Shown here: positions 8,131-53,466 of the stretch, piece by piece
How the letters are laid out: each line of letters begins with the position of its first letter
How positions within the stretch are numbered: the first letter of the stretch is position 1
Assembly (NCBI RefSeq): GCF_037042905.1
Contig: NC_087250.1
Location: forward strand, 26,786,001-26,850,000
Origin: Lytechinus pictus
Taxonomy: Eukaryota
DNA: 64,000 nt
Reading direction: 5' to 3'
The notes under the pieces: model-generated
Databases searched by the model: none
Seen by the model: the letters and a program-made list of their open reading frames with translations, nothing else
Told to the model about the DNA's origin: nothing
Program-made: the position numbers and the translations under genes

Positions 8131-8172
8131 AAATAAATATGATGATGTGCTGTTTATCATTATAGTTGAATC

Positions 8173-10076: not shown

Positions 10077-11439
10077 TTAATCCTCGGATAAAATTTTGTA
10101 TTTCATTTTTTTTTTTTTTTGCTTTGTCTTGCGTTTTTAAACATGTTCTGGGAACTGCTTTTTGAAAGTTGTCAGCATTAACAAGTTGTCTTTTTCCGAC
10201 AGTTACCATAGTAACAGTCAGAGGCCAGTGCTTCTCAGCCAATCAAAAGCAATGATTTCACTGAAATAGTCGGCACTGACGATCATGAAATACCCATCAG
10301 ATGTTAGCAGATAATGTGCAACATAGACTCCTAGATACATATATGCAAACATACATAGTCTAAGTCTTTATTATTAAAATAAATGTATAGGTATAAGGTC
10401 GAGGCAATTTCATCTCTGCGATGTCAATTTCAGAAGTATTCCCAAGACCATGTGAACTTACTATACATGTTGTAATAAAAATGATGATGTGCTGTCTATC
10501 ATTTATAATTGAATCATTGAAATATGGAACTTAGAGAAGTTTCACTATCCCATGTATTTTCTTTATGTGCAGATATAATTTTACACCACTGAAATTTTGT
10601 ATTACGGTATTCACTGTACTTATTATTTTTCATTCCATTGGTTTTTTTTTCTAATCTTCAGATACATCGCATCTACCAGCAAAGATCAAGTGCCACTACA
10701 GGAAAGGAAGGTACCTGTTTCACGTTTCCTCTTCAGAGCCAGTGAGGGCCCCAAGATCTCAATAAATAATAATTAAAAAAAGACTCCTTTATCATTCCTT
10801 TAAAAATAGTACATATTATTTATTGAAGGTAAATGCTTAGATGCATTATATTCAAATTTTGTCTCCAAGCTAGCATGTAAAAATTGGATTGACTACATAT
10901 TTACTGTGTAAGTTAATGATCTTTGTTGACACATAATACAAGAATTATACACAGCATGTTACAGTTTGTAACATAATTTTCTTTCATTAAATTCCTAGTT
11001 TAAATACCATATAGATGTTTTTTGTGACTTTTGTCATTCTCTGATGTTTTTTGGTACAGATTTCAAGAGACTGAGGGATTGATTTACCAGAGCAAGTTTA
11101 CAGTCCAATCCTGTTATATTGTGCATGTGGAAATTAACAAGGTTTCAATACAATGCTACAAATTTACCTTGATTCATTTCATCAGTCCTATGTGCAAGGA
11201 TAATTATTTCACTTGTCCATGCACATTGTTATAACAGGAGTGGACATTCAATGTAAAGATAATTGAAGATAATTTATAATTGAAATAACCGCCTGAGAGG
11301 GGGGGGGGGGGGGGTGTTGGTACCAATATTCTAATGTGTGTGTGCGCAAGGAAAACGAAGGAGTGATTATATGAGAAGAGTAAAAGATCGGGAATGTACA
11401 TATCCACATGATTCATTTTTGTTTATGCTATACATTGCA

Positions 11440-12094
11440 GGGTGTTTCTAACTGGTACCACTTGACAATTTATGTTTCCAACTGGTCCTAACTGGTGCTT
11501 TCAACTTGTTCTAACTGGCACCAGTTGACAACTGGTGTTTCCAACTGGTTTTAACTGGCACCAGTTGACAACTCATGTTTCCAACTGGTCCTAACTGGCA
11601 CCAGTTGACAATTGGTGTTTCCAACTGGTTTTAACTGGCACCAGTTGACACCTCATGTTTCCAACTGGTCCTAACTGGCACCAGTTGACAATTTGTGTTT
11701 CCAACTGGTTTTAACTGGCACCAGTTGACAACTCATGTTTCCAACTGGTCCTAACTGGCACCAGTTTACAATTGGTGTTTCCAACTGGTTTTAACTGGCA
11801 CCAGTTGACAACTCATGTTTCCAACTGGTCCTAACTGGTACCAGTTAGGACCAGTTGTCAACTGGTACCAGTTGCTAACTGGTACCAGTTAGGACCAGTT
11901 GCCAACTGGTATTTCCAACTGGTACCAGTTACAATTTGTCAACTGGATTCCAGTTGATTCCAGTATTGGAATCAACTGGAATCCAGTTGATTCCAGTATT
12001 CCAATTTCCATATTGAATCCAGTTCGCTAACTGGAATCAACTGGTACCAGTGCCAGTTGGATGAACTGGTCCTTAACTGGTTTTTTGACCTGGG
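11440..12094. repeat. Right subterminal array: alternating 40-bp A/B units forming an 80-bp higher-order repeat
   Basis: 11521-11840 is 4 x (CCAGTTGACAACTGGTGTTTCCAACTGGTTTTAACTGGCA + CCAGTTGACAACTCATGTTTCCAACTGGTCCTAACTGGCA), with minor variants. Confidence 0.95.
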
Positions 12095-19544: not shown

Positions 19545-22500
19545 GGAGCTTATACGTAAGATCGTATCTCTGTGATTTTCCAAGGCCCTATATAAACAAG
19601 GTTGCGACACCGGAAGTTGCCGTCATTTGCTCATGGAGCTTTTGAATAGTTCCAAACTCACCGAAGTCAATGGGGGAGATTTTTCGACAGCAAATTTCAG
19701 GTAATTACAATTGTTATTAAGAAAAACAAAATGATCGTTTTTAACGAGAATTTTATGTGCTTCATTTCTATGTGATCGATTTGCAATAATTTTGAATTTT
19801 AACATGCTTTTTTACTAATTTTTAATAGTTCCAAGGCATAAACATGACAGTAAAGATACGGTATGGGACTGGCAACCGTGGCCGGCAGTGGGGCTGGCTC
19901 AGTAGGCCGATATACGCTGTGACTGGTTGTGTTTCCTGACGGGTTGGGCGTCCGGACTCATGAGTTTTTCCTTTCGATTTTGAAAAGTTTACAAGCAATG
20001 TCTTTGATTTTTTTAGCACAGAATGTAAGAAAATATTATAAAGAACAAATAATGATGGTGATAAGCATTATTCAAGCTATATTTTTTGCTTTATTTTCCT
20101 GAGAAGTGAGATAAAAATAAAAAAACAAGTGAGATAAAAATAAAAAAACAAGTGAGATAAAAAAAAAAAAAAAAAAAAAAAACAGCAAGCCTAGAGTACT
20201 TCTACATAGGATGGGGGTCGGGTGTCCGGACACTTTATATTTTTGAAGCCTTCTTTTTTGTCTTTATATGAATTTAATAGTTGTAATCATCTTCTATTTT
20301 GTTCTTTGTAATATATTCCTTAACATTTTGTACTAAAAATTGATGAAACTTCGCTTGTAAATTTTTCCAGACGACTTTCTAAAGTAAAATTGATCGCCCG
20401 GACACACAACAACTGGGTATACAAGGCTTCATTTTTCAGTGTCCAGACACCCAACCCCTCATCGATGTTTCCACAGATCCAAAACAAATTTCCTGAAAAT
20501 GAACCCCAAATTTTCTAAAATTCATAGACAATTCCTGGAATTTTCAATTTTGATTTTCAACGAAAATCTGGCAATAATAAATAATAATTAATACAGTGAG
20601 CTTAAATTTGGTCCAAGAAGTGACCAAAATCAAGAAATTTAACAGTTTTTGTTCATCATGTCCTCTTGAAAAATAGGAACAAAATTAGGAAATAACGAGC
20701 GCAGAAAATTATAAGTTTCGATGATGGAGCCTAATTGGAGCCTACGTCTGGATCCGGAGGAAGATCTAATGTTAGATCTAAATCTTTATAAAATATTACA
20801 TGAATATTTTAAAGTTGCTACGGTTAATTGTTGTTTAATTGTAATCATGGGCGGATCCAGTATTTTCCAAAACGGGAGGCACATTTTTCTGAGGAAAGAT
20901 TTAACAACGCTAAAAGAAAAGGGTCTTCACTTTCAAGGGGGGGGGGCAGGGGCACACTTCTACATTTCTACATTACAATTTTTAGTTTTGCTTCTCAAGG
21001 GGTCTTGGGGGGCACAAGCTGGCTTTGCCACCCCTCCCTCTTGCAATTTTTGGATTTCCTGAATTTCCTGGAATTTTTTTCATTTCTGGAACCTTTCCTG
21101 GAAAAAGTTTTTAAAATTCTCAAATTTATGGAAGAGTGGAAGCACCCCATCCACTTGCACTCTTCAACCACCCTGTCTGTCTTGAGTCAATGCAACATAC
21201 ATGTACAATGCACACTCAAAAAGTCTTTAAAATATCACTTTTTTTTTACATTAAAAAAACTCAGATCCATTCAGTTATTTGTTTTCATTCTAAACTTAGA
21301 AAAAAAAAATTTATTCACCAGAGCGCTCAAAAATTTTAATTTTGAGCATATTTTTGTGAGGCCTTCTGAGATTGATGCAGATCTTCATCTCCACAGACTC
21401 TCTTTTTAATCCCTTTTTTATTAGAAAAAATAATAATTTCAAGAATTCAATTTAGTTTTGTGCCAAGGCATTTTTTTATGATGATGAATTCACTGTATAG
21501 TCAAAATTGACTGTTCCAAAATATCAAGTATTCATCCAGTCTAGATCAAGAGAAAATCAACAATCTTGTTTACAATCTTGTTCACCGCATAGGTTACTAA
21601 CTGCGGACAAGGACAGGTTATCACAACCTTGTGATAAAAGTGGTGTTAGCTTAGGACTGCATTTTTTTAAAGTGGTGTTAGACCACATGGATGTTATCAC
21701 AACCTTATAATATTGGATAAGTGCCCCCATCATACCACTAGTTGCATGTCCGGACAGGTTGGGTATCTAGACCGAAAATTTCTTCCACTAGGCCAAGTAA
21801 TTTGAAATGGTTTGGAATTAAAATCAATTCTTTGTAGTTTTTCAAAGAAACTTTTAGAATTTGGAGGCCTAATGTAGCATACATGTACATGTAGACCTCT
21901 ACTCTGTTGATATGTAGTATGGATTGGTGTGATAAGTAATTACAAAAGCCAATGACAATACATGCTTAGTTGACTAGATAATCACTGATGCACGATCATG
22001 CACCAAACTTATCTAAGTTAGATCTAAATGTAGATTTTTTTTTCAATTTGATTGTGGACAATAAAATAGGCCCTAATTGCTGCCGATTGATCTGTTTTGG
22101 ATGAGAGGAACTACTGGATAAGCCTGTAAGCTGTGAAAGTATGATTGTTTGATTTCCATCATTATAGTAATAAGATGTGATTATATTACATACATGTAGG
22201 GCTACATTGTGCAATCAATCTTTCTTATTTCCTTTAAATCTTCTCCTTTAAATCTTGCATCATGTATCAGTCCGCCTGTCTTCTGACTGCATTTTGTGCA
22301 ATGTTGGATGAGTTCGACTCTCATGAAGTTCAAAATTTAAATTCAGAACTTTCATTGGTGGCAACAGCATAAAATGAGGGTCAATCTCTCACTCTCTACC
22401 TCTTCTTTCTTTTATTTTATATTTAGTGTACATGTAATGATAATATAGTTGGATCATGCATTAATTTAGATAGTTGTAAAGAGGTTGTTTTATTAAGCAA

Positions 22501-24592
22501 ATACATTTTAATGCCAATATGAACTTTATATGGCATTGGATGGGTGAGGATGTGCCATGGCCGCATTAGTCTGCAGGCACAGACCGAATGAAACTTGTTC
22601 TAAGTGTGGCTCCAAGGAAGATACATGGTGACCATGAAACCTACTACACTGTCTCAGATGTTGTTCTGCTACACTATTCTTCTTCGCCATGGAAAATTCC
22701 AGAAGTTACAACATCTGAGATGGTACAGAGATTGAAGCTTTTTGGTCTAGAAAATGTGCAAAATATTGGCAGTGCAGAAATGAAAAAAAAAAAAAAAAGG
22801 AAGCTACATGCAAACCAACTGGATTACTAAACTCATTTGTCCATGTACTGACACCATGAAAGCATTTAGGGTTATCATAGACCTAGTGGTCAATGATGTT
22901 CGAATATGCCTTGTGAGAATTGAACTCACCCAGTACACAACAAAGAGTTTATAGCCAAATTGGTACTAAGCTAGACAGGAATAACCATCGTTTCTGGGGA
23001 TTTATTTAACAATTTCTGACATTTTACTAATAAGTGAGAGAAGCCAACGCAGTTCAGCGAAACAACCAAATACAGAGACTGATGCTTTTGGTCTAGTACT
23101 GTACTAGGCCTACCTGGGTATTTCACTTGCCTTCGGAATAGTTTTACATCACAGTGGCAACTATAAGGATAGCCCTGGCCTGTATCATATATGAAAATAA
23201 AATAAGGCATGTTAATCTCGAGAGCACCGAGGTACAAGTGTGTAAGGCATGATTATAATGTAAGTGGTATAAAATCCAAAGAACACCATGGTATGTTTTT
23301 ACAGGGCATAAAGGGTAGAATTATTAAGAACGCTATAAAAAATTATGTAGCGATAGGAATATAAGGGGATACTAGCTCTGGGCTTTTGTAATTCTGGTGA
23401 CAACTGACAAGACCACTTATCCAAAGTAAAAGGTTATGACATAAACCTAACCTTATCCTCAGTTAGTAACCCCTGTGCTGTGTGGTGATTGAAATGAATA
23501 AGTATTTATTTACTTTTTTTTTGTATGTTCTTTTGATCTAAACTGGATAAATGCTTCATTATTTGGCACAGTCCTGGTTGTAAATTCATCTTATGCCTTT
23601 GCTCCAAAATAAATTGAATTCTTGAAATTAATTTTGTTCTAATTAAAAATAAAGTTTGTGAATGTGAATATCTCACTTATCTCACTTTCCACCAAATAAT
23701 AGGCAATATATGTTTCATCTTCAAAATCTAAATTCACAAAATTGATTCTAATTCAATTGTCAAAGTTGATTATCAAATGAACGTAATTCCCAAGGATACC
23801 AATTACCTTTCTTATAACATCTTTGCATACATTTTTTGCCTGTATTTTGTCATGTTTATTTATAACTCACTGCATGTAGATCTAGATCTATTTGGTATTA
23901 TAGGTCTATCTGATCTTATTCTTAGTTAGACTTGCCTATTTAGATCTAGTAGTAATATTTTTTGCTGCTCTTTTTTGTTAATAGGGTCACATGGAAGACC
24001 ACCAAGTTAATGATATGTGCCACCCTGTGACCTGTTTAAATATCAGAAATTTAAAAAAATCAATTCTCACAGTCACAGTCCACTCACACTATTGCGAGGT
24101 TAGTATATGCTATACGGTCACAGACTCACAGTCAAACTGAAACTCGATCAGTCAAAGACAAAAGCACAAAGTAAAAAATATGCTCAAATCAATCATGTTT
24201 TTGAGCTCTCTTGTAAAAAAAAATCAAAATCAGCTAAATTTACAACGGCACAAAATCTACAATAAGAATTTAGGATATGAAACTAGTATTTATGTCACCA
24301 CATACATCTCAGTCTCACCTCTCGCTCTCCAAACGACCCGTGGGGGACCAGCAGAACCTTACATCCAGCCCGACAGTTCCGGGGAAAATTAGTGCAGCGT
24401 CCCACTCGCTACCAGCAGCAGTGAGCATTTACGGCTTGCGACGAACTCGGCTGCCATTTTTCAACTCAACGATATTTCACGTATTTTGTTATAATCTCGT
24501 ACAAATTTGATAAATTTAGGTGGTCGCTAATATATTGGTATGAATGTGCAGCGTAAAAATAAATTTCTAACGTCTATTTCCGATATAATTAT

Positions 24593-25489
24593 AAACAAGT
24601 GGAATGCCTCTGGCCGTCTCACCTGCATCACGCGATTCAATATAGCAGCAGTGCTGATTTTGAAAACTACTATAACTCGCACAAGATGTTCAGTGATACT
24701 TGGTTACTCTTATTTCCACGTTTTATGAACTAGACCAATACACTTATAGAGATATGATGGCAATTCAACAAATACCCCCAACGTGGCCAAAGTTCTTTGA
24801 CCTTACATGACCTTTGACCTTGATCATGTGACCTGAAACTCGCACAGGATGTTCAGTGATACTTGATTACTATTATGTCCAAGATTTATGAACTAGACCA
24901 ACACACTTTCAAATTTATGGCTGTAATTCAACAAATACCCCCAATTTGGCCAAAGTTCATTGACCCTAAATGACCTTTGACCTTGATCATGTGACCTGAA
25001 ACTTGCACAGGATGTTCAGTAATACTTGATTACTATTATGTCCAAGTTTCATGAATCAGATCCATAAACTTTCAAAGTTATGATGGTAATTCAACAGATA
25101 CCCCCAATTCGGCCAAAGTTCATTGACCCTAAATGACCTTTGACCTTGGTCATGTGTCGTGAAACTCATGCAGGATGTTCAGTGATACTTGATTAACCTT
25201 ATGTATAAGTTTCATGAACTAGGTCCATATATTTTCTAAGTTATGATGACATTTCAAAAACTTAACCTTAGGTTAAGATTTTGATGTTGATTCCCCCAAC
25301 ATGGTCTAAGTTCATTGACCCTAAATGACCTTTGACCTTGGTCATGTGACATGAAACTCAGGCAGGATGTTCAGTAATACTTGATTAACCTTATGGCCAA
25401 GTTTCATGAACTAGGTCCATATACTTTCTAAGTTATGCTGTCATTTCAAAAACTTAACCTCAGGTTAAGATTTGGTGTTGACGCCGCCG

Positions 25490-25526
<37 letters not shown>

Positions 25527-25582
25527 CGCCGTCGGAAAAGCGGCGCCTATAGTCTCACTCTGCTATGCAGGTGAGACAAAAA
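24593..25582 (-). mobile_element. HINE/pearl-like element, second copy (inverted)
   Basis: Reverse complement of 7172-8130 with few substitutions and a longer (GCC)n tract. Confidence 0.8.
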
Positions 25583-25697
25583 TGATTCAAAACTTTGCAC
25601 GCATTTCCAATGGTAGCAGTCGACAAAAAGGCCCGGTTGGAACTATTCGAGACCCTTCAAATTTGACCTTTGACCCCTGTTGTCGCAACCTTGTTTA

Positions 25698-26241
25698 TGT
25701 TGTAAAAATGAGAGTTGTGGTGTTAGCGATGGTGTGATGGCACGAGATACGATACAATACGATGGCGAGTGGTTAAACTTACAATTACAACACTGACAAT
25801 GGTTACGACTCACGAATACACGAATGGGTTACTGACGGTACGAAACAGTGACAACAACTAATACTTACCTGACTCTTGTACTGACGATGCCACACGGTAG
25901 ATACAGATAACAGGTTTCTTATAAGACTTCTAATAACAGACCACGGCGCCGGGTGGGGATGCAGCTGGGTTGATGCGTCCACACTCGTTGGCGTCTCGGG
26001 GTCTTCTCTCTGTGGTGTCTAGTCTGGATCTAATCTCTCAGCACCAGCTTGTGTACGTGCTGTGCAACGCACACACGTAGCAGGCGTAGGAGCATATAAA
26101 GGCTCCTCCAATCAGGAGCGCTCCTCGCATACACACAGCACATACACAGACTTAATATACATGAACATAGATCAATACATATATACTAATACACAGACTA
26201 ATACATATATGGTACTACAGGTACATGGCAAATTTACTACA
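25698..26241 (-). repeat. 3' LTR
   Basis: Preceded on the minus strand by the polypurine tract; 26016-26241 is identical to 33111-33336. Confidence 0.92.
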
Positions 26242-27250
26242 TTCCTCCCGGTTCCATCAGATTGCGACATATATTGACAAATCTATGAATTGACTATATT
26301 GTGCAATCTCAATAGAAAAATACAGATATGAAGAACTGACAGAGGAATGTAATATATGCCTATATGATTAAAACTGATTAAATACATGACATCAATAAAA
26401 TACCTCAAATACATAAAAAGCATGATCTGAGGACATAAACTTGTTTCTATAATAACTTGTTCATTTAAAAAGGTTGCTGGTCCAGCAAAATCAAATATCT
26501 TATCGCTTGAGACCAGCAAATATACACTTTGAGAAACAAGAACAAGTTAATGGTAAGTAATCCGGCCAGTCTGGCCCAGTTTTGTCTATGTATTGATAGT
26601 TGAAACAAAGAATATATTCTTATTTAGTGCAAGTCTAAAAGACTGAAAGAAGGTGTGTTCATCCTTCAAAGTGCACTTCTTTACATATAGATTGTTCAGG
26701 TTGACTCTTGGTCAGTGCTGCATATCAAGTTGTATATTGTACTATTAATAAGCATAATAATGAAATAAAGCCAATTTGGCTGGAGCTCTGTTACCAATAT
26801 ATAGGCCTGTACAATGTGACCTTTACAAATATGATATATGATTGGTAATATGTTTGAGCTCTTAAAAGCATGTAAAGTAATGATACTTCAACCAGATCTG
26901 GTGCAAATAAATATAACAACCTGGACTTGACATACATACATAGTATTTTCTCTTGAGAAAAACTACTACTATTTCAACATCCTGTATGACAATATTTCCA
27001 GGGTTGTTTATATTAGCCTTTGCAAACAAGGTAAAGGATCTATGGTTGAAATATCTATATCTTTTATGAAGTATAAAATATATACAAATATGATAAAAGA
27101 ATTATCTATTGCATAACCAGTGTTTGCACCAATTACTTCATATGTCACCTGAAGAGGTAAAAACTATTGAAAAATAAGAAGTGTGCCTTCACCTTCAGTG
27201 ACTATTAAAAGGAAATACAATGTATAACATAAATTTCAATTGCAGGACTT

Positions 27251-28795
27251 TCAGCAACTGATCAAGGAGATACTACTCCATTCTTGGGGTGGTGGCCAGG
27301 GAGGAAGGAGCCAAGGACAAGATGTAAGAAATGGGTTGTTACCTAAACTACAAACATACCTCTGGTTCCACCACAAGAAAGAACTGAGGAATTCAAGGAT
27401 AGAGAACTTAGGAGGGGTAATTCCCAAAAGTAATTGCACAAGATAACTTTGCCCATACTTGGCATCCTCAGTAGAGGCTCGACTGTCCTCTGACACAGTT
27501 ACAAGACTTGCATTATCTACACCTATATTATTTACAGTATCATCACTTACACATGTAGTATGTACAGTTACATCATCTACACATGTGGTATTTACAGTTA
27601 CTTCATCTACACTTAAGATATCTACATGTGTTATTGCTAAACGTTCTGGACAGTTCCTCTTAAAATGTCCAGATTTGTTGCATGCAAAACAAACATCACG
27701 ACAAGACACCTTGGATTCAGTGTCTTCTGTCGAAGGAGAACGTGTAGGCTCATTCAGCTCTTGAACAGCCGTGACCAATGCCTGGACTGTAGACTGTAAG
27801 GACTTCATCTGTGTCTCTAGAGATTGAAGGTTGTCGACCTTCTTCTCAATACTTGACAAACGGTCCTCCAGCCTGTCCAGACGAGAGGGCAGCTGAGCAT
27901 TAGAAGCGCGCCCGGAAACACCCATACGGTTGATTCTGGGATCCTCCTCAACAGTATCGTACGGCATTTGTCTTGCATACTTCTGCTTACACTGAAACAA
28001 CTGAACTCTGTAAATGGCTTCCTCAAGAGTCTGCGGATGTGAATTAAGAGCATATTGTCCCGCTTCATGGTCTAAGGAACCCTGGCAAAATTTATAAATG
28101 ATTTTCTTCCCAACAATCTCCTCAGGCTGTCCTTCAAATGCACGTGCGGCAAGAGATAAGACACAACGTGCCCAATCTATTTCAGATTCAGTTGTAGCCT
28201 GTTTTGACGAATTGAATATCAATTCGTCTTTAGGAGTCTCCTGGGAAACAAATCTTTGTTCAAACTTCTTGATCAAATTTGTATAGGTAATGCTTTGTTC
28301 GCGACCAAGAACTAATGCCAGAAATTCACTTGCACTTCCCTCTAAACAGTAGCAAAACTGATTGCGCTCTTGGGCTTGATCCCAACCATTTGTCTCAGAA
28401 TACAGTTGGAATTTACATAAGAAAGACTGCCAACTCCCTCTGCCATCGAAGGTCAAGAACTTGGGCAACGAGGAAACCCCCGCACCAGAAGTACTCCCAC
28501 GAGAATAAGAACTGTGGGCACCACAACCTCGATTGAAGGGGGGAGGCTTTGCACAATCATAACGGCATTTATTGGCACATTTAAGTACAAGATCTGCTAG
28601 ATGGAAATCGGATATACCATATGCCTGTGAATAATCAAACGTAGTACCAAACTCAACTACAAAATTGTCAGGATAATCTAGCTTGTATAGATTCCTTGCC
28701 AGTAAACCCTCAGTTAAGTATCTGTTTCTCGTACGAAGGTGTAAAATGTCTTCAACTAATCTTTGTTTTGCTCTAGCGATATCACTTTGCATCAT
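27251..28795 (-). CDS. gag: Retrotransposon Gag (capsid-like domain, coiled coil, CCHC zinc knuckle); first ATG at 28795
   Basis: Intact ORF with FDGRGSWQSFLCKF...NGW...LEGSASEF capsid-like motif, LDRLEDRLSSIEKKVDNL coiled coil and CFACNKSGHFKRNC knuckle. Confidence 0.9.
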   Translation of the reverse strand: MMQSDIARAKQRLVEDILHLRTRNRYLTEGLLARNLYKLDYPDNFVVEFGTTFDYSQAYGISDFHLADLVLKCANKCRYDCAKPPPFNRGCGAHSSYSRGSTSGAGVSSLPKFLTFDGRGSWQSFLCKFQLYSETNGWDQAQERNQFCYCLEGSASEFLALVLGREQSITYTNLIKKFEQRFVSQETPKDELIFNSSKQATTESEIDWARCVLSLAARAFEGQPEEIVGKKIIYKFCQGSLDHEAGQYALNSHPQTLEEAIYRVQLFQCKQKYARQMPYDTVEEDPRINRMGVSGRASNAQLPSRLDRLEDRLSSIEKKVDNLQSLETQMKSLQSTVQALVTAVQELNEPTRSPSTEDTESKVSCRDVCFACNKSGHFKRNCPERLAITHVDILSVDEVTVNTTCVDDVTVHTTCVSDDTVNNIGVDNASLVTVSEDSRASTEDAKYGQSYLVQLLLGITPPKFSILEFLSSFLWWNQRYVCSLGNNPFLTSCPWLLPPWPPPQEWSSISLISC

Positions 28796-31700
28796 TATGC
28801 ATTCCAAATAAATTCAGAAAAGTATTATTGATGATCACCCTGGTGATTCAAAGGCATACTCTTAAACATATTTATTAACTGTCATAAATCCAAATTCAAC
28901 GATCTACAGTGTATTAAACTTAACAGAATAAAACTTGCAGATCAGTGAAAGAACTTAACTACCGGTAGGTTTGATATACTTCTTTAATCCTGTGTCACTG
29001 AATACACTTACTGCCAAGGAAAGAGTGAAGTATTGCAATACTTGTACTGCTACGAACAAGCGTCTCAATAATAATAATAGATGTACACACTCCACTCCTG
29101 TAGCAATGGATATATTCAGTGAAAGTATATTTACAAATTACAGTGCAGCTTCAAGTTTCAGAGACTACACTTGTAGAATAGAATGTATCAAACTTGTACT
29201 ACTCTGAGTAATCGCAGAAGTGTCAATAAGTTTTACTTACTCTACGACTATTAAAAGAACCTAACAAGGATTCAACTTATCGAAGCCTCAACGATTTACA
29301 GGAGTAGCATTCAATAATAATTGTTTATTTCTGATGAATGCAATATATAAATGCAATATATAAATGTTTATTTCTGATGAATGCAATATATAAATGTCAA
29401 ACACACATTTATCCCACATCCAATTTTCTTTCTTTTTTTTCTTTTTTTTTAGAATGGGGATAAGTTACCAACTAAAAAATGATGAGACTACTATTTAGAA
29501 ATCAACTTGCGCAAAATGACAGCAGTGAATTTTGTACTTCACTGATGAATGGGATTCTAGAGCCTGAATAGAAATTTGCAAATTTTCAGCGCAAGAATGA
29601 TTCTCCAAAAATACAACAGAGCAAACTATTTGAACAAATTGATTTTTTTTTTGTATTTTTTTTTTCCAAAGAATGTTGATATCAAACATTTATTCTGATA
29701 TCAAAGATTGATAGTATCTGTACTTTCACTTAAAATCAGAGTAAAGAGTTGGTTTAATTAAAATAAGTATCTTCAAGAGCCTTATTAAAATTTAATTCAG
29801 TACTTCTTGTACCTTCAGTGAGATCTATCTTTCCTTAAAATCTAGAAATTAAATTTACAAGCAAGAATTATTCCAAAGAAAAATTCCTGATCTAACAATG
29901 CTTGTTAAAATTAATCAACTAAGAAAAACTGACTTTCAAACAGACACAAAGACAATCCAGGATAACCTCCAAGAAAAATTTCCTAGAAAGAACTAAGGGC
30001 CTGAAATTAAATTCCAAGTCCTCGTTCAAACAAGTTAACACCGAGTCAAAAGGCAAAGCAAAACAATTGCACTTGTTGGCTCCAGGTATACACTGTCGGG
30101 AAATTACAAACACCTGAGAGATTAAACAAGATTATCGGCTGCAAAGATTCCTAAAATCCTAAGTAATAATGGGATTTGATATCAAATTAAGACAATAGGA
30201 TTTTCTAACCTGGACTAAATTAAGTATTTTAGCGTTAGGGTTAGAAATTGAACTTCCAAGATTTTTAGTAATCTGGACAAGTGCTTATTTACTGATCCAC
30301 TAATCTAAGTAAATTAAAGATCCAAAAAGACTAACGTTAATTTTAACCTCTGTATTGTTAACGTTAAATCTGAAGGTAAGCTCAGAAGATTAATTAAATA
30401 AATTCTTTTGAGTTTCCAGTGAGACAGTCGAACTGACTGTATCTCATCAAAGATACAAAACTGCAAAGTGCTACTGCACAAACGGTCACAGGTAGTCTAG
30501 TAATATAAACTCGATGTACCGGTACGGTACCGTACCCGGTACACCAGACAAAGCTAAGCCTAACTAAGCTTGGGCCCTCGGGGAAATAAATTTAACTAGA
30601 TCTACGAAAAAGAAATATGACAATATTGAAACAAGGAATTTATCTCTGTTTGCATAAATATTGAGTCAGAAGCGATTGACAGCTAAATCCATCAAATTGT
30701 CAGTAAAAATCGACGAAATGAAAACTCGTTCAGAATTTGCCTTCACGGAGACGATAGCCGGCTCGTGAACGTTTTCCCTGCCTGGAGCTACGGGCCAGAT
30801 AGAGAGGTGCGTTGCGCTGGGGTTGGTTTGGAAACTGCGCGACGTTAGACCTAAAATTAACTAATAAAGAATGATCAAATTACAAAAACAACTTCTACGA
30901 GTTCCTGCTTGGAACTAATCTTTAGAATAAATCAACAGTCAATCGCGATAATCGTATAAAGTCAGAGTTTAGCAAATTCTAACTCTGATCGACTGTGGTG
31001 TTTACTTCAACGAGAGTCGATCTCGATCAAGTGAAAAATATAAGTCACGTGATTCGGCTCGGCAGTCTTTCGCCAAGCGAGCTAGGCGATCGAGGGTAGA
31101 TTGTACTAGTCAAAAACAATCTTGTTACTTTTTGACTTGCAATTAAATGGTAATCAAAATAAGCACATAGATTTATCAATGTGTTGATTCAATTTTAGTT
31201 CGAATCAAAACGACATATAAACATGTAACATGAAGAACATAGAGAACAATTTATCTAAGTTATCAAGAAATTAATAGCCTACCGGTTTCTCTGCAAAACT
31301 ACACAATTTCAAAAAATTATGGAGCCTACACCCAACCAGCCCAAACTACCAATTATTTGATGTGGAAGATGAAATTATTCAGACTTCTCTTTCCCAGTCC
31401 CAACGGGTCTGACACTGGTATTGACAGAAGTCTATTCACATAAATATTTCAGACGTCTATTTTTTCCAGTCCCAACGGGTCTGACACTGGAATTATTTAT
31501 AGAAGTCTATATATTCACACACAATTCTACCGAATGGGTGAACAATTAGCAACAATGAATAACAATAACTTTTAGATTGAATTTAAGACAATGACAATCA
31601 CAGTTATTACAAGAAACAATCACAATATGAGATGTGATGAATGAAATGCTTTAAGAAAATTCACAAGATGTGTATTAATTAAAACAATAATCAAGAGTAT

Positions 31701-32768
31701 ATTTTTCAAGTTACAGGTAAGATCCGAAGCTCAGAAAAACCCACCTATTTTTCTAGTAACAGGTAAGATCTGAAGTTCAGAAAAACCAACCTATAACCAA
31801 CGACACAAGTGTAATTTCGAGTTGGGTAAATGTTTGAAGTAAATTCAGATTACTAAACTCGGCAGCCAGGAGTATTAGAACTTCTAACACTCTTTCTGCC
31901 ACCCAATGTGTACAGAACTGGTTGTAAAAACACTTGCTGAATGTCGATAAAAAACATACACTGAAAATAGAAATGTATGAACAGCAACTCTACGCCCTCA
32001 AAAGATTAGTACACTGCCCAATACAAGAGTATGAAATTCTAGGAAACTTACACCATCTGGAATAATTACTGAGGATCGATAGAGGACTCAAATTTCAAGT
32101 TCAAACTTTTTCAATCCAATAAAACCACCAAATACTCACACCCGACTTTTTTTGAAGTGGTGTGGTGTGAACGTTCCGAATTCGGAAGAAATCTTAAAGA
32201 CAATGGCGGACTAAAAATATCCAAGCCTAGATGCAGATTTCAAAGAATTCACAAACAAAAGCAACGAGACGGTATAATAAAGTTACGCAAAAATATGCAA
32301 GGAACGAAATTCTTGATCGCGAGCCAAACAATAGAAGAGACTCGCGAAGAATGCGATAAGAAATGCAAGTGCAACTAAACAATGTAGGGCGTATGCACCG
32401 TGTGCATAGAGTCGACCACGTGCGTTGCAATGAAAATGCAACGCAGTGGACATGAAATAACTTCCCAGATATGGCAAATATGTATCAAAATTGACTTGTA
32501 TCAAACAAGAAATTATATCATGTACGGAAAAATGGTAAAACTAAAACAAGATGTGTGCGAGATGCATGCGAATCCACGCAATTACGGCACGCAAAATGAC
32601 AATTCTCGGTAGAGAGCGGAAAACTTTCCACTCACTCTCCGTTCGTTATACACTTCAAAATCACTCACAAATGACTTTCATGAGCAAGTATGAAGTATGA
32701 ACGGACATGAAATGATGAAAATGAAAATGACAGGCGCACAGGACGATCCGAAAACTCGCAATCGCCAA

Positions 32769-33336
32769 TGTTGTAAAAACTGTATAGGTTGATGGTGAGG
32801 GTGACTGATGTGATGGCACGAGATACGATAAGTTACGATGGCGAGTGGTTAATTATGACAAGTACAACACTGACAAGGGTTACGACTCACTAATACACAA
32901 ATGGGTTACTTCGACGGTACGGGACAGTGACAACAACTTATACTCACCTGACACTTGTACAGGCGATGCCACACGGTAGAAACAGGAACATTTATACTAA
33001 TCACAGGTTCGGTAGATACTTCTAACTTAGTTGTAGACCATGGCGCCAAGTGGGGAACAGCTGGGATGCGTGTCCACACTCGATGGCGTCTCGGGGTCTT
33101 CTCTCAGTGTTGTCTAGTCTGGATCTAATCTCTCAGCACCAGCTTGTGTACGTGCTGTGCAACGCACACACGTAGCAGGCGTAGGAGCATATAAAGGCTC
33201 CTCCAATCAGGAGCGCTCCTCGCATACACACAGCACATACACAGACTTAATATACATGAACATAGATCAATACATATATACTAATACACAGACTAATACA
33301 TATATGGTACTACAGGTACATGGCAAATTTACTACA
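32769..33336 (-). repeat. 5' LTR
   Basis: Followed on the minus strand by T-TGGCG... (PBS-like); TG/CA termini. Confidence 0.92.
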
Positions 33337-33352
33337 TTTATATAGGGCCTTG

Positions 33353-34308
33353 GGATTTTCTGAACACGCTTCAAGTCTCATCGCCCTCTCTTGGCGAGAT
33401 AGAACCAACCAATTCGAATCGGCATGGAAGCAGTGGCTTCGCTGGTGTGGTGAACAATCGATTGATCCCTTTAAATCATGCTTAGTTAATGTAATTAACT
33501 TTCTTAGTTCTGAACAAAGTCAGGGAAAATCGTATTCTACTATTAACTCATATCGCTCAGCGCTCTCTTCTGTTCTTCCTCCAATTGAAGGTTATGCTAT
33601 TGGCAAACATCCCATGGTAGTTAGGTTATTAAAGGGAATATTCAATGCTAATCCTCCTAAACCAAGGTATCAAAATACCTGGGAAGTGTCCCGAGTGTTG
33701 GATTATTTATGTTCATTGGCAGAGAATAGCCAACTTTCTTTATTTCAATTAAGTAAAAAACTTGTGTCGTTAGTGGCGCTTGTAACAGCGCAACGTATAC
33801 AGACACTCAACCATCTGGATATTTCTTTCTTGCACATTTCTGATGATCGTGCAGTTTTTCAAGTCATGGAAATCTTGAAAACCACAACTCCAAAACGGAG
33901 TATTGCAAATCAACTAGTTGAACTTCCTTCCTTTCCTTTGAATAAGAAATTGTGTGTTTTATCAACCCTCAATTAGGAATATCTTTATCGTACTAAACCG
34001 CTTCGTGAGTGTCATGGTCAATCAAAGCTCTTTATTTCTACTAAGAAACCTCACAAATCTTTATGTTCCAGTCCTTTGGCAAGATGGCTGAAATCCACTT
34101 TTTGTGCTTCGGGCATTGATACCTCAGTGTTTTCAGCTCATAGTTTCAGAAGTGCAGCTACCTCTTCTGCATACGCACATGGCGTCACATTGAAAGAAAT
34201 AATGAAGAAAGCTGACGGTCAAATGCCCGAACTTTCAAACAATTTTACCACAAACCCATCGTCGTTACAGATTCTTTTGCGTCTTCCGTTTTGGAACAAA
34301 CTTCATAA
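33353..34308 (+). pseudogene. DIRS-type tyrosine recombinase remnant
   Basis: Motifs SWR...KSYSTINSYRSALS...GKHPMVVRLLKG...PKPRY..TW, AQR (catalytic R) and AHSFRSA (HxxR). In-frame TAG at 33974-33976; a frameshift at ~34217 precedes (W)SNARTFKQFYHKPI, which carries the catalytic Y. Confidence 0.9.
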
Positions 34309-36901
34309 ATAAATGGTTTTTACCCCATGACATATCACTTTGACGTAGAGTTAAAGCTGTAATTGAATAGATTTTGTTAGTTTAAGAAGGGCGAAGTCAT
34401 TTAGTCTGTGCGTTTTCCGATCACTCATGATAATTCTACATGGGTGTGAAATGTTGTTTTTCCTTTTTTGTAAGAAAGTGTTAATTTTTCCTCCCGAGTG
34501 TTTTTTCAATCATCGATTCCTATTTATAGGGTCCCTTACCTCATTAGAATTTTAAATTACTTTGAATTTCTTTTGTGTGGTCTCTCTGCCTAGCACCTGG
34601 AAATATGCTAACCCTCTTCGACTTGTACTACATTATTACTAATAGAATTCTTATTATACTTCATGTTATTTGCATAATTTAGGAATTATATGACATATCA
34701 ATATAGATTAGTCACCCATCCACCTATTATATTAGTAGGTCCTACAAGATTAAACTAGAACAATGTCAACTAGAACAATGTTTGGCTGTAGATGGCGCTA
34801 TTTATATTACTGGTAAGGTCGGATTTGACACTTCAATTTGCCATCAGGGGCCCTATTTCATAAAATTTGTTTTAATAACAAATCAAGTTTGCGATAGCAG
34901 TTAAACGCTACTCAAATACTAAAATCTGATTGGCCGATAGCAAATTTGTTATCGAAATTATGCATTTCGCATTATGACAAGTCTATATGAAACAGGATTT
35001 ACAATTTAAATGTTCTACTCTCAAAGGGAAAAATTGACCCTGAAAATAAGTTGTTAATAAAAGCTAAACAACAGAAACAAAAAGCAATAGTTGGGATTAT
35101 TTTTTAGTTTATACACTCATATATTTCATCGATGATATGTTGTCCGATAGAAACTTCCAAAATGGATTTTTCATATTGTCACTGTTATCATTGTCATTTA
35201 CCATTATCGTCTTTCGTGTTATTGCTATTGCTGTTGGTATTATCATAGTAATGTCAGTCACAGTTTTTCATTATTGTTATAAATATAAATCAGCCATATT
35301 ATAAGTTGTTGTGGTATAATTTGTAAAACCAACTCCAGTACTGTCATCGCTCTAGCTTCTAGAAAGCAGATGTAAAGTGCAGCCATTGGAGACGAAAACT
35401 GTTGTTGAAGTTAATATTATTCCAAAGCGGTCCTTTTATATCGGTGTAATATTGATAACGATAATATCTTATTTTTCATACGTATTATATTCCCAGCTGT
35501 TATTGACTTACTGCTTTCCAAAATATGACTAATCTATAGAGACAGAAACATAGAGAGAACTGACAATCCACCTTTGAAGGTGGTTTCATTGTGATATAAT
35601 TACGATTATAAAAAGTCTGCAAAAAAGTTAAAACTGCACACGCAGAAAAGTACGCAACTTCGAACAACTTCAAAACTACAACTGTAAACAACTTTAAAGA
35701 GGTTGTACACTAATGTAACAACATTAATTGTTAAATTCATAAAAAATGAAAGAGATATGTATGTAAAGCGCAACCTCAAAACCTATTTAAACAAAACACC
35801 AAAAACAGATAAGATGGGAAAATCAATTAGTACGTACATTTATCAACGAGATAGAATCGACATCATTTGTAATTATTTTTATTTTATACAGGCTTTTCGT
35901 CGCAAATGCTTTGTCACCAACGTCATAAAGTAATATTAATGCGAGCTTATGAGCTGCAGGAAACATTTCTGCAAAGCTACTCTGTGCGACGCATTATTAC
36001 GTCAACGTATCAATATACCAATGTATTTTCACAAATAATCATAAATGCACAGATGTATTTGATTTTGATTATCGACTCCCATTGTCGTTCACGGTATACA
36101 ACATACGTGTGTTATTTATTATGAAATGGTATAACTGTAGTACACATGGTATATTTGTCTTCCAAGATGCTCCATGAATAATAATAACATAATGCACAAC
36201 TGTACATGTAAGTGCACTCAAATTGTGTCACAACATTTTTTTAAAATCAAACTCTTTAAACTTGAATACTCTAACACTGTTTTGTTGTGGATGGTACCGA
36301 TTAAAAGACATGTTCCAGTGGATGTGATTTTCTATGAAATATTTTGATCACTTTCTTCTTCTTCTTCTTCTTCATCTTGTTGATATAAAATAACTTCATG
36401 GAATTTCTTGAAAATGTCAGAAAATATCCTTTGCTCATTGCTTTTTGATACGGTACCACTAAAGTCATGAAAATAATTGAATTTTGCATTCAAAGAAAAT
36501 TAATAACCGTGATAGTGAAATAAATGTATACAAAAGTAACATGACATTATTTATAAAGAAACAAAGGATTCAAAATAGAACCCTTTTCAAGATTGCCATT
36601 CGCGCCGATATATCAATGTTATTCACAGTTTTTAATTCTTAACTCCGAACAGCTTCAAAAAAAATATATTACACTAACTGCAAAGGAAGCAAGAAAAGAC
36701 AGATACTCATGTTTACTCTAAGCTAGGATATATAAGATTGACAAGAGTTTATTGCCCCAAAATTAGAAGACGGTCCAAAAATACAGAAACATTTACAGAA
36801 AAGGTTCACAAAGAAATCACCTATAAGTGTATTAAACGCGGCTAGTTTTATAATAGCATGGTGTTACTCTAAATGAACTTCAATGTATTCTTTGTATCTT
36901 A

Positions 36902-37758
36902 AGGCCACCGCACACCTTACGACCCGACTGGTCGGCGACTGGCTTGCGACTGAGAGAGGGGATCCGGAGATGAATCGCAATTAAAGGCCACCGCACACCT
37001 TACGACCCGACCAGTCGCCGACTGGCTTGCGACTGGGTGAGGGGAGATGTGACGTCACAGCGCATGTCAGCTTCAGAGTCGCAGACCGGTCAGAGACAAG
37101 TCGCAAGGAAAATCGGAAGGATTTGACATGTCGAATCCTTATGACTGGATCGCAAGCTCAATCCAAATTCCAGCCAATCAGACAGCAGAGTTGCACGACG
37201 CGTATATGATAAACAACGCGCATACGCAGTAGTAAACGCATTCTCTTTGTTGTTATGCCAAAAAGCAAAAAGCGCATGCGTGAGTCGCAAATCGGATCGC
37301 AAGGTGTGCGGTGTCGTGGCTTATGACTACCTTGCGATTCATCTCCCCTCTCTCAGTCGCAAGCCAGTCGCCGACCAGTCGGGTCGTAAGGTGTGCGGTG
37401 GCCTTAAGGCAGTCATAAGCCTCGACACCGCACACCTTGCGATCCGATCTGCGACTCACGCATGCGCTTTTTGCTTTTTGGCATAGCATGCAACTGAGAA
37501 AGTGCACTTACTACTGCGTATGCGCGTTGTTTATCATAATACGCATCGTGCAACTCTGCTGTGTGATTGGCTGGAAGTTGGATTGAGCTTGCGATCCAGT
37601 CATAAGGATTCGACAGGTCAAATCCTTCCGATTTTCCTTGCGACTTGTCTCTGACCGGTCTGCGACTCGAAGCTGACAAGAGCTGTGACGTCACATCTCC
37701 CCTCACCCAGTCGCAAGCCAGTCGGCGACTGGTCGGGTCGTAAGGTGTGCGGTGGCCT
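36902..37758. mobile_element. PIF/Harbinger-like MITE copy A, interrupted by copy B
   Basis: TIR AGGCCACCGCACACCTTACGACCCGAC; TTA at 36899-36901 and 37759-37761. Confidence 0.85.
36985..37404. mobile_element. Same MITE family, copy B, nested in A in the opposite orientation
   Basis: TAA TSD at 36982-36984 and 37405-37407; body is the reverse complement of copy C. Confidence 0.85.
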
Positions 37759-37850
37759 TTAGGTCCGACGTACATAAATTTTTTTTCACTTAAAATATAT
37801 CTTTAGTTTACATTTTTACACAGGTCGAACAGAAAGGCTAAGTATGGTAA

Positions 37851-38273
37851 AGGCCAACGCACACCTTACGACCCGACCGGTCGCCGACTGGCTTGCGACT
37901 CAGTGAGGGGAGATGAATCGCAAGGCAGTCATAAGCCTCGACACCGCACACCTTGCGATCCGATCTGCGACTCACGCATGCGCTTTTTGCTTTTTGGCAT
38001 AGCATCTGAGAAATTGCGCTCAATACTGCGTATGCGCGTTGTTTATCATAATACGCGTTATATGCAACTCTGCTGTCTGATTGGCTGGAGGTTGGATTGA
38101 GCTTGCGATCCAGTCATAAGGATTCGACATGTCAAATCCTTCCGATTTTCCTTGCGACTTGTCTCTGACCGGTCTGCGACGCTCAAGCTGGCAAGAGCTA
38201 TGACGTCACATCTCGCCTCACCCAGTCGCAAGCCAGTCGGCGACTGGTCGGGTCGTAAGGTGTGCGGTGGCCT
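37851..38273. mobile_element. Same MITE family, copy C (uninterrupted)
   Basis: TAA TSD at 37848-37850 and 38274-38276. Confidence 0.85.
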
Positions 38274-39409
38274 TAAGTTCCCCCATGTCTGCGCGGTCTC
38301 CCAAGTCTGCGCACCCGCGTATCTGGGCGATTCTAGTAAAAGAGGATACGCAACGAGCACGAACTTTACACATGCAATACATAGACAGGTATTCATAAAA
38401 AAATCCGACTCAAAATGGTGGAAAAATAATGAATTCAGGGAATTTCATGTGACGGCCTCAAAATGCAGCCTTTGTCATCAAAATCCCTGAATCGTGTGCA
38501 AAGTGAATGAGTGCGCAGACATGGGGTACCATTTTTTCTTCAATCTGAAAACGACTGCCCAAAGGTTTTTCAAGAAAATCTTATATTTTCTTTCATTTTT
38601 TAATGAGAAATTTGGTACACTTACTCTTAATAATGTAAGGAATACTATTAACCAAAAGATTTTGTGAAATAAGAAAAAATTCATGATAAATCTTAACTCA
38701 AACTGTTAGGTGCGCAGACTTGGGGCCCACCATCATACGTGATAATAATATAGATACATGGTAATTGCTCAGTTTAATATAATATATACATGTACATCGC
38801 TATATTTGATTTTGATAGTCGATTTAGCTTTGGCATACAAACATGACAATTAAGAGTCTACACATCATTAAATATTCATGTCCGGTACATTAATATGAAT
38901 ATACCGTCATACAGCATGATATATTTACACGTCCGCATGTGTCTGCGTACAAATTATCCTACAGTCAAACCAATCGAGGTGTTTTTTTTTTTCAATATGC
39001 TTCCAGTGCTAATTCATACTATTCAGATTTCATACTTTACAGATTTGATACAATACACGATAATAATTGTTTTTCAATATTAATACATGGTGGTCATATC
39101 AACCATGTATGCACCCTATGGTAACAATAAAGAACTAAAAACAAACAGGAATATTATACACATTCACACCTTATTCACCTATTAAAAGAAAAAGCTAAAA
39201 AAAAAATGTTTCCATACAAATACATTGTGCACAACTTCACCTGATCTACGATATTAGCCTTGTGCTTATTTCTTAAAGGATGATACATTTCTCAATTCCC
39301 TTTTGAGTGATACAAACCGTTCCTTAAGATATTAGATTATATATTTAATATTTTACTACCATAAAAGACAGTGTCCAAGTTTAATGAAAGAGGATCTCAG
39401 CTACATGTC

Positions 39410-50580: not shown

Positions 50581-51350
50581 TGGTTTGACATACGAGGGGA
50601 AAAATCACACAGGGGTTCAGGCCGATTCTTCCCCCGGAATGCTCAGAGGAGCCAGAGAAAACCCCCCATTCACTGCCATGTGAAAGCAGATTTAGGCAGT
50701 ACTGTAGGTTGTGATAACTAGCCCCAGATAATATCAAATCATTTTATTTACGGGGGCAGCTTTTTTATTGGGGGAGGGGTCTTAGCTTCTGAAAGTTCTT
50801 GTCCACTTTAGTTTGAAAATGACCATGTGTGATGGTTTAACATACGAGGGCGAAAATCACAGAGGGGTTCGGGTCGATTCTGCCCCTGTAATACTCAGAA
50901 GAGCCCCTAAAAACACCCATTTAATGCCATGTTAAAGGGCAGCAGAATTAGGCAGTAGGATGTAATAATTAGCCCCAGAAAATAACAAATAATTTTATTT
51001 ACGCAGGGGGGGGGGGGCTTTTTGGGGGGGAGGGTTGGTCTTACCATCTGGAAGGTCTTGTCCACTTTAGTTCGAAAATGACCATGTGTGATGGTTTGAC
51101 ATATGAGGGGGAAAATCACACAGGGGTTTGGACCAAGGAGATGATATAGATCTCCTTTTTTGGACAGATTCTGCCCCTGTAATACTCAGAAGAGCCCCTA
51201 AAAACACCCATTTAATGCCATGTTAAAGGGCAGCAGAATTAGGCAGTAGGATGTGAAAAGTAGCCCCAGAAAATAGGGGGAAAAAATCATTGTTATTTTC
51301 GGGGGCGGTTTTTTTTTGGGGTGTGGTCTTACCATCTGGAAGGTCTTGTT
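50581..51350. repeat. Three ~250-290-bp tandem units that include the end of ARF6 exon 3 and its splice donor
   Basis: Units start at TGGTTTRACATAYGAGGG (~50581, ~50833, ~51092); GGTCTTACCATCTGGAAGGTCTTG occurs at both ~51037 and ~51325. Confidence 0.85.
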
Positions 51351-51531
51351 TATTTGCGAAGATGAGGATTATGGCTTCTTTCATTTCCCTGTCGTTTATT
51401 ATCCGATGAAGTTCTTGCCTTGCTTCGTCTATCCTATCTCTATCGGCACAATCTACTACAAAGATTAACCCTTGAGTTCCCGTGTAATAATGCCTCCATA
51501 AAGGTCGAATTTTGTCTTGACCGCCGACATC
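51333..51531 (-). CDS. ARF6: ARF6 coding exon 3
   Basis: ttgcag|DVGGQDKIRPLWRHYYTGTQGLIFVVDCADRDRIDEARQELHRIINDREMKEAIILIFANKQDLPD G|gtaag. Confidence 0.98.

Positions 51532-52629: not shown

Positions 52630-53466
<837 letters not shown>

Follow-up and report, generated by a model that had tools for sequence, protein, structure and literature searches.

An LTR retrotransposon of 7639 bp (~7.6 kb) with a single gag ORF lies on the minus strand of the Lytechinus pictus window, the whole 64-kb stretch of DNA that was analysed. Its features and those of its target site are listed below; the labels U3 and R/U5 were inferred from the sequence.

33337..33340, plus strand: right copy of the target site duplication (TSD), TTTA
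33111..33336, minus strand: 5' LTR positions 1-226, putative U3 that may include the start of R; same sequence as 26016-26241
32769..33110, minus strand: 5' LTR positions 227-568, variant A, putative R-U5
32940..32950, minus strand: variant A splice donor CAG/GTGAGT, exon end 32948, intron G 32947
32750..32768, minus strand: primer-binding-site-like (PBS-like) stretch, whose TGG starts one base past the LTR
28796..32749, minus strand: leader of ~4.0 kb without a minus-strand ORF of at least 100 aa
27251..28813, minus strand: gag-like ORF, open over 520 codons between stops, with its first ATG at 28795 and a CCHC zinc knuckle
26259..27250, minus strand: non-coding stretch of ~1.0 kb between gag and the polypurine tract
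26242..26258, minus strand: polypurine tract (PPT), immediately adjoining the 3' LTR
26016..26241, minus strand: 3' LTR positions 1-226, identical to 33111-33336
25698..26015, minus strand: 3' LTR positions 227-544, variant B, putative R-U5
25861..25871, minus strand: variant B splice donor CAG/GTAAGT, exon end 25869, intron G 25868
25694..25697, plus strand: left copy of the TSD, TTTA
19580..19609, minus strand: second, uninterrupted copy of the target repeat, found by flank matching

Both LTRs have TG...CA termini on the minus strand, and the two minus-strand splice donors lie where the sequence-only reading had placed them (intron G at 25868 and 32947). The TATA-like TTTATATG at LTR position 142 (33195) is presumably a TATA element, judged by the consensus. 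Neither AATAAA nor ATTAAA is found in either LTR, and no tRNA gene is found within the 64-kb window. Self-priming of the Tf1 type and priming from a splice junction both found no support: the best duplex between the PBS-like stretch and the element's own LTR was no better than shuffles (p 0.09-0.49, six tests), and pairing with the exon junction inside the LTR gave weak duplexes (-9.5 kcal/mol at best; local fold z 0.49).

The gag ORF matches the zf-CCHC domain and has 2481 relatives; among 20 of these that were scanned, 10 carry a PNMA or Retrotrans_gag match and three a gag-type protease. With its zinc knuckle, the gag is of the Ty3/Gypsy type, and the element likewise has the direct LTRs with TG...CA ends, the short TSD and the PPT of that type. 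No protease, reverse transcriptase or integrase and no second long ORF were seen in the element, and a comparison with 151 relatives (three with a protease) gave no match in it outside gag. Two distant relatives (24% and 29% identity) carry the RT-RH-IN order. Close gag relatives comprise two proteins among 8000 scored candidates, with none among longer or shorter proteins, and the 18 pattern matches in viral contigs yielded no confirmed case. The 22-base motif common to variants A and B had no match in metagenome contigs; a check of 77 distant metagenome gag loci for LTR pairs found a direct repeat of at least 60 bp at one (109 bp, L015), and none matched the LTRs of this element. The suggestion that one LTR variant is tied to a pol-bearing helper found no support, as an X1 contig described below joins a B-type end to the element's own leader side; the sole other subfamily gag found (P0003) has the same non-pol tail, and longer proteins yielded no gag-pol relative, the latter being weak evidence. 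With its LTRs, PBS-like stretch, PPT and a single gag ORF but no pol, the element is similar to the plant TR-GAGs, which are moved in trans (PMC4350172); as described in the accessible part of that report, however, these are plant elements of <4 kb with a 5-bp TSD, whereas the element here measures 7.6 kb, has a leader of 4 kb and a TSD of 4 bp, and resides in an animal. The element works like a TR-GAG but, by its length and TSD, is not classed as one.

The sequence-only reading had noted an LTR pair that is identical on the U3 side and diverged on the R/U5 side, and this is borne out. Positions 26016-26241 and 33111-33336 agree letter for letter, with a longest common suffix of exactly 226 bases, whereas the remaining parts (318 vs 342 bp) differ by 39 substitutions over 314 aligned sites (14 transitions and 25 transversions) and by 15 gap events. 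Thus 12% of the sites differ, apart from gaps, and the longest identical run is 22 bases. All 54 events fall outside the first 226 bp, which would have a chance of ~2e-13 if they were spread evenly over the LTR; the divergence of the whole LTR pair is 7.6%, and the U3 pair is without any difference. Within the diverged part, the differences show no significant clustering (p 0.13-0.66), which was tested as a sign of selection, and the CpG observed/expected ratios of the two variants are 0.90 and 1.12 vs 0.64 for the window. The A-to-B switch is placed within ~17 bases before LTR position 227, where the first difference stands. For independent copies 2-5% apart, the chance of a 226-bp match is 1e-2 to 1e-5, and the identity points to one template.

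The TSD is intact, as had been claimed, with TTTA at both ends (4 bp, no extension to 5 bp). Moreover, 19580..19609 matches 17 bases on either side of the element, the final ones of the left flank and the initial ones of the right flank, which overlap by exactly the 4-bp TSD, so that this second copy of the target repeat is an empty site carrying one TTTA. Both flanks of the element therefore belong to one site, and ectopic recombination of elements from separate sites, which had been offered as an origin, is excluded.

Public reads from samples X1, X9, X21 and X22, with the RNA runs chosen by species label, were compared with the element; they represent copies of the family. In these reads, the two sequences on the R/U5 side behave like variants of the family and not like private decay, and at least two further LTR variants appear. 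A-like relatives in other samples have loose ends at 33071, 32980 and 32948. One X1 contig, aligned up to 32779, continues with B-type letters (12/12), joining the B end to the leader side; variant B is a working 5'-LTR type, as seen in one contig over 12 letters. Mixed A/B-like joints with other breakpoints are present in X1 and X22, a U3 variant is present in X1 (loose end at 26117), and an X9 contig departs from the shared U3 at position 220. At 25833, a letter other than that of the window is found in 7/7 X21 reads and in all of the X1 depth, and likewise in most reads at 25874; no exact B donor copy was found among the reads examined. In X9, the depth is 13.2 in the bin with most of U3 vs 2.4 for B and 0.83 for A. 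The gag of other copies is nearly the same as that of the element, with three differences in an 815-nt X1 contig and none in two X9 pieces (220 and 193 nt).

RNA from copies of the family uses both LTR splice donors, exact to the base. Loose ends of RNA reads fall exactly at 32948 for variant A (3 reads in X21 and 9 in X22) and exactly at 25869 for variant B (6 in X21 and 11 in X22), with 3 more at 25867; the reads at the B donor carry a third variable segment and therefore come from other copies. In RNA, the LTR donor joins exons absent from this element, and the two main downstream exon motifs are absent from the 64-kb window. At the low depth of these runs (138 and 43 reads), no joint from the LTR donor into the leader or gag was listed, and no pile-up at a transcription start or poly(A) site was seen. 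Sense reads extend to at least LTR position 256, and the RNA start is bracketed at ~150-256: the X22 depth over LTR positions 1-150 is 0.23 vs 3.64, with a weaker contrast in X21 (0.71 and 0.60 vs 3.53 and 1.28). This bracket is soft because reads of copies with a diverged U3 would be missed. The TATAA motif, at position 341 in A and 319 in B, was rejected as the promoter of the expressed copies, whose reads reach further upstream. The A/B switch appears to fall where the family RNA seems to begin.

Under simulated neutral decay at half the A/B distance, gag stayed open in 0/3000 simulations with indels and in 1.4% with substitutions only, and the internal region is not as decayed as the diverged part of the LTRs. 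The element is young, since its gag is open against this simulated decay and is nearly identical in other copies.

Based on the results presented above, the reading that we favour, with evenly balanced confidence, is that the element is a non-autonomous reverse-transcription hybrid of two co-packaged variant RNAs, born with unlike LTRs. One particle would have held a variant A RNA and a variant B RNA; minus-strand strong-stop DNA made on B would have jumped to the 3' end of A, giving a 3' LTR with the U3 of A and the R-U5 of B, a step described before, while the 5' LTR would have kept A's own R-U5. The two-template origin proposed from the sequence thus remains the best reading, but not in its ordinary form: co-packaging with an intermolecular first jump predicts the same mosaic in both LTRs, which is absent here, and one further unusual step is therefore needed. 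By one route, the minus strand may have run on through the unused primer site of A as far as the RNA's 5' end and paired through R with plus-strand strong-stop DNA, leaving a heteroduplex 5' LTR to be resolved after integration. By the other, the second jump may have been intermolecular, from a cDNA already bearing the same U3 with variant A. Integrase supplied in trans would then have inserted the product with its 4-bp duplication.

The premise that normal reverse transcription gives an identical LTR pair agrees with the review PMC6894440, in whose accessible part standard reverse transcription, recombinant included, yields identical LTRs; this counts against the hybrid reading, as does the view, in the accessible part of PMC5651808, that divergence in R disfavours an intermolecular first transfer. 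Also against it are the softness of the RNA-start bracket, the lack of an exact B donor copy among the reads and the single contig, with its 12 letters, behind variant B at the 5' end. No paper showing a minus-strand read-through was found, so that this route is put forward on our reasoning, and the literature searched gave no precedent for the exact pattern of a discordant LTR pair. LTR recombination is already known; the discordant pair described here rests on one locus. A doubtful extension of this reading is that the family regularly releases cDNA whose LTR pair combines a single U3 with two different R-U5 modules, by way of minus-strand read-through and a heteroduplex 5' LTR.

Several known systems share parts of the pattern, as far as the accessible text of their reports goes. 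In ONSEN/COPIA78 (PMC5668417), where reverse transcription recombines elements pairwise with breakpoints in R, and in Ty1/Ty2 hybrids (PMC4022208, PMC3511429; review PMC6894440), the U3 of one parent is combined with the R-U5 of the other, the switch lies in or beside R, and divergent family members recombine in pairs. In contrast to the present pair, in which the mosaic would be one LTR, theirs is a mosaic in both LTRs. For HIV-1, proviruses made by an intermolecular second transfer were proposed (PMC5651808); similarly, both cDNAs of a heterozygous particle are used and the two LTRs come from different templates, but that proposal was inferred from next-generation recombinants, and whole LTRs including U3 should differ unless the parents share U3. 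The template-switch complex insertions of Triticeae (PMC1950507) also go back to an abnormal switch from one RNA to another ahead of a single integration, and their TSD is intact; they consist of three LTRs, of which the outer ones are similar, and two internal regions, whereas here there are two LTRs, which are unlike.

A tentative but serious alternative to the hybrid reading is recombination after integration at the same site, with another genomic copy or with A-type cDNA, either linear or circular with one LTR. Either a resident B-type solo LTR or full element would have made the TSD, and all but the last 318 bp would then have been replaced or added, or the starting point would have been an A/A element whose 3' LTR was converted on its R-U5 side by a B copy. 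Such an event preserves the TSD and flanks, requires only variants known to exist and is in keeping with the mixed joints in X1 and X22. However, it leaves the position of the switch at the apparent RNA start unexplained, its circle version requires parents that share U3, and the distance between A and B (12% of sites plus gaps, no identical run above 22 bases) counts against it, such diverged sequence being a poor substrate for homologous recombination. Precedents at existing sites, with hybrid elements or partly homogenised LTRs, are found in the accessible parts of two reports. In 1/4 clones, integrase-independent recombination of Tf1 cDNA converted a resident Tf2 in part, making it a hybrid (PMC11042837), and conversion tracts of 100-1000 bp, within or between elements, were predicted in ~25% of plant LTR pairs (PMC7251063); in both, the breakpoints have no tie to R.

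An assembly artefact is improbable. The true locus would hold either a concordant element or a B-type solo LTR, and the assembler would have used the identical 226 bp to loop through an element of type A; the structure matches exactly the product of such a loop and the stretch is not spanned by any of the reads or contigs listed, but the window has no N and suggests a long-read assembly, by which a 226-bp repeat would be easily spanned. Still less credible is a built-in asymmetry, in which a non-standard replication route would give every copy of the family variant A at its 5' end and variant B at its 3' end: U3 seems more conserved than R-U5 in X9, which would be unusual if real, but contig depth is no copy number, an X1 contig has a B-type end next to the leader side, and there are two or more additional variants. 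Finally, an old insertion with U5 variants unique to it, whose LTRs decayed to ~14% divergence before the outer 226 bp were converted between its own LTRs, can largely be set aside: the unclustered differences are as expected under neutral decay and intra-element conversion is described in the accessible part of PMC7251063, but gag is open (0/3000 simulations) and nearly identical elsewhere, CpG is retained in both variants, transversions outnumber transitions, the donor, ends and TSD are intact, and other samples contain A-like and B-like sequences.

LTR-pair divergence is the standard clock of insertion age. At 7.6%, pipelines would date this element as old or discard it, despite its identical U3 pair and nearly identical gag. 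If the pair was born unlike, it records the template of each strand transfer, which is normally erased. If the doubtful regular read-through route were true, this locus would preserve, in frozen form, an intermediate of a reverse-transcription route that has so far been guessed at only, donor-bearing R-U5 modules would be shuffled under a common promoter, and spliced transcripts from LTR to host would be seeded. As the LTR donor is used in RNA and joined to exons outside the element, other transcripts of a model sea urchin can obtain first exons from the family.

The two LTRs of the minus-strand retrotransposon at 25698-33336, numbered from their TG ends, are bounded as follows.

25698-26241 (544 bp), minus strand, 3' LTR with TG start and CA end
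32769-33336 (568 bp), minus strand, 5' LTR with TG start and CA end

In the minus-strand reading, a PBS-like TGG comes after the LTR edge at 32769 and a polypurine tract before the one at 26241, and the copy at 32769-33336 is therefore the 5' LTR. The two copies show no difference over LTR positions 1-226 (here labelled U3 by inference), whereas the R/U5-side remainders, variant A in the 5' LTR (32769-33110) and variant B in the 3' LTR (25698-26015), differ at 39 of 314 aligned sites by substitution and by 15 gap events (Jukes-Cantor distance 0.136), confirming the identity and divergence noted in the sequence-only reading. With even spacing, the chance of all 54 events sparing the first 226 bp is about 2e-13. 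No significant clustering of the A/B differences was seen (p 0.13-0.66), a point in favour of decay in an old insertion, and hence their spacing does not demonstrate selection. At 33183-33200 and 26088-26105, the TATA-like word of the LTRs lies between the arms of a 5-bp inverted repeat and also reads TATAAA on the opposite strand.

A 4-bp TTTA duplication could arise by chance in AT-rich DNA, and at first sight the flanks are unrelated, the left being a repeat and the right a DIRS-like recombinase remnant.

19580-19609, minus strand, uninterrupted target copy matching, in each flank, the 17 bases next to the element
33341-34312, plus strand, recombinase-frame remnant with an in-frame stop near 33976 and a weak Phage_integrase match (E 0.004)

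The two 17-base matches within 19580-19609 overlap by exactly four bases; therefore, both flanks are one site, the target-site duplication described as intact is upheld, and the LTR pair cannot stem from a crossover of elements that sat at separate places. The element entered a short repeat (25586-25697 and 33341-33353) 13 bases from its end; this repeat may be one end of a small DNA transposon, and its last 30 bases recur unchanged elsewhere in the window (copy 19580-19655, minus strand). The tyrosine recombinase remnant, which we take to be DIRS-like from its sequence pattern, starts a few bases past the end of the target repeat. Two inverted-orientation copies, 96% alike, of a 1-kb repeat with 163/192-bp units lie at 7169-8131 and 24592-25585, the latter stopping 112 bases ahead of the element. 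The window also holds a 40-bp tandem array (11416-11923), a GC-rich cluster of repeats, 90-97% alike and in both direct and inverted arrangement (36898-38281), perhaps nested foldback elements, a degenerate CAT/CAC-rich tract (52638-53258), and one gene piece.

51223-51600, minus strand, exon-like fragment from a gene of the Arf GTPase family (Pfam Arf, E 1.9e-31)

The alternative of an old insertion with recent conversion fails. Across 3000 simulations of random decay over half the distance between A and B, the gag frame stayed open in 1.4% when only substitutions were allowed and in none once indels were added; moreover, an 815-nt gag-region contig of contig run X1 has 3 differences from the element, and gag pieces of 220 and 193 nt from contig run X9 have none. 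Also counted against old-insertion decay are the retained CpG (observed/expected 0.90 in A and 1.12 in B, versus 0.64 in the window) and the excess of transversions over transitions (25 versus 14).

The element (7639 bp) consists, apart from its LTRs, of a 4.0-kb leader, a single open frame of 520 codons with a CCHC knuckle, and 1.0 kb behind the frame. At an E cutoff of 0.001 this frame has 2481 relatives, 20 of which (about 17 longest of the top 150, plus best matches) were scanned for domains: 10 matched PNMA or Retrotrans_gag, 3 a gag-type protease, and 9 (P0004, P0005 and P0008 among them) a helix-hairpin-helix at the N-terminus, no trace of which was found in the element's gag frame or leader. 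Two distant gag relatives on metagenome contigs stand ahead of RT-RNase H-integrase frames. A search of the window with 151 gag relatives, 3 of them known protease carriers and none a known RT carrier, turned up no pol remnant. By its sequence, the element is thus classed as gag-only, with a Ty3/Gypsy-type gag, and would therefore require enzymes in trans. Neither self-priming nor splice-junction priming finds support: the PBS pairs with the element's own LTR no better than shuffled sequences do (p 0.09-0.49), and it is complementary to none of the donor-acceptor junctions. The closest protein, a gene model from Lytechinus pictus, mismatches at 3 of 409 residues; two of the three sit where the model translates the same DNA in a different frame, and the model thus derives from a copy or allele with an indel there. 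A second L. pictus model, the GPATCH4-like P0003, starts with about 190 residues of the family gag (71% identical), which suggests a family copy inside or beside that gene. These matches make L. pictus very probably the host.

Four of the 23 listed runs were mapped on 25590-33110 at 88% likeness, namely the contig runs X1 and X9 plus two runs of raw RNA reads, X21 and X22, of which about 6% each was read (138 and 43 reads mapped). Among the matches listed, 6 X21 and 11 X22 reads stop matching exactly at the predicted donor 25869, 3 and 9 exactly at 32948, and 3 more at 25867; the splice donors predicted in both variants are therefore used in RNA of family copies. In X22, all depth in both LTR bins is first-mate-plus, as most stranded libraries would give for RNA in the sense of the element. 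Beyond the donors the reads carry letters that occur nowhere on the mapped stretch; their two main sequences are missing from the whole window as well. A hypervariable segment (LTR positions ~305-357; 32980-33032 and 25903-25932) immediately precedes the conserved donor block; the window, X1, X21 and X22 together show at least four versions of it. Since segments unlike A and B appear at 25903 and 32980 (X21, X22; among the matches listed), the spliced transcripts probably derive from additional variants located elsewhere. The matches listed also include A-like relatives (departing at 33071), a U3 variant (26117), and mixed joints (25932 to 33032, 32927 to 25848, 25920 to 33030), with no exact B copy, which counts against the two-template reading preferred below: at 25833 every read, and at 25874 most reads, differ from the letter in the window. 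One X9 contig departs from the shared U3 at LTR position 220.

The proposal that one variant comes from a pol-bearing helper finds no support. One X1 contig mapped up to 32779 runs on with letters matching the B end (12/12), and, only 11 terminal bases being common there, it must be leader-anchored; B ends thus join the element's own leader side, and nothing ties B to pol. On these 12 letters, B-type ends appear to serve as 5' LTRs in the family. P0003 has the element's non-pol tail, and no gag relative turned up among longer proteins, though this counts as weak evidence. Packaging of two gag-only variants together with enzymes from a helper would fit equally well.

The RNA start probably lies between about 150 and 256 of the LTR. 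Sense reads extend to at least position 256, the TATA-like word is at position 142, and depth in the bins with positions 1-150 is low (0.23 versus 3.64 in X22; 0.71 and 0.60 versus 3.53 and 1.28 in X21); this bracket is soft, because copies with diverged U3 would escape mapping. No pile-up of RNA starts or ends was seen (X21, X22; among the matches listed), nor a canonical poly(A) signal in either LTR. The A/B switch falls inside the bracket, within about 17 bases before position 227.

In ONSEN, an intermolecular first jump has been shown to couple the U3 of one RNA to the R-U5 of another (PMC5668417), but the second jump normally places the mosaic in both LTRs (PMC6894440); consequently, a discordant pair requires one more step. 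The suggested origin from two co-packaged RNAs holds insofar as a two-template hybrid is preferred, but a simple first jump is insufficient, as it would give identical LTRs. The minus strand would be primed on B and move to A by an intermolecular first jump, then read through, copying A to its 5' end and pairing with plus-strand strong-stop DNA via R; the 5' LTR would become an A/B heteroduplex and resolve to A. Such read-through, a step proposed here, is the simplest that also accounts for the perfectly identical U3. An intermolecular second jump, as proposed for HIV-1 (PMC5651808), would have the same outcome if the parents already had a common U3. Jointly, these two routes have, in our judgement, an even chance of explaining the pair. 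Recombination after integration, by cDNA entering a resident LTR or element (as for Tf1 and Tf2, PMC11042837) or conversion by another copy (PMC7251063), preserves the target-site duplication equally well but makes no prediction of a switch near the RNA start; it is a tentative second choice. An assembly loop through the 226-bp repeat would yield the same picture and is judged unlikely.

Recombinant LTRs and LTR conversion are already described, as are gag-only elements, under the name TR-GAG (PMC4350172). Full-text searches of the open-access literature, which takes in few subscription journals and little of the older work on retroviral strand transfer, revealed no LTR pair whose U3 is identical and R-U5 discordant within a verified target-site duplication. 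This is a single locus, real and well defined, for which two mechanisms are live.
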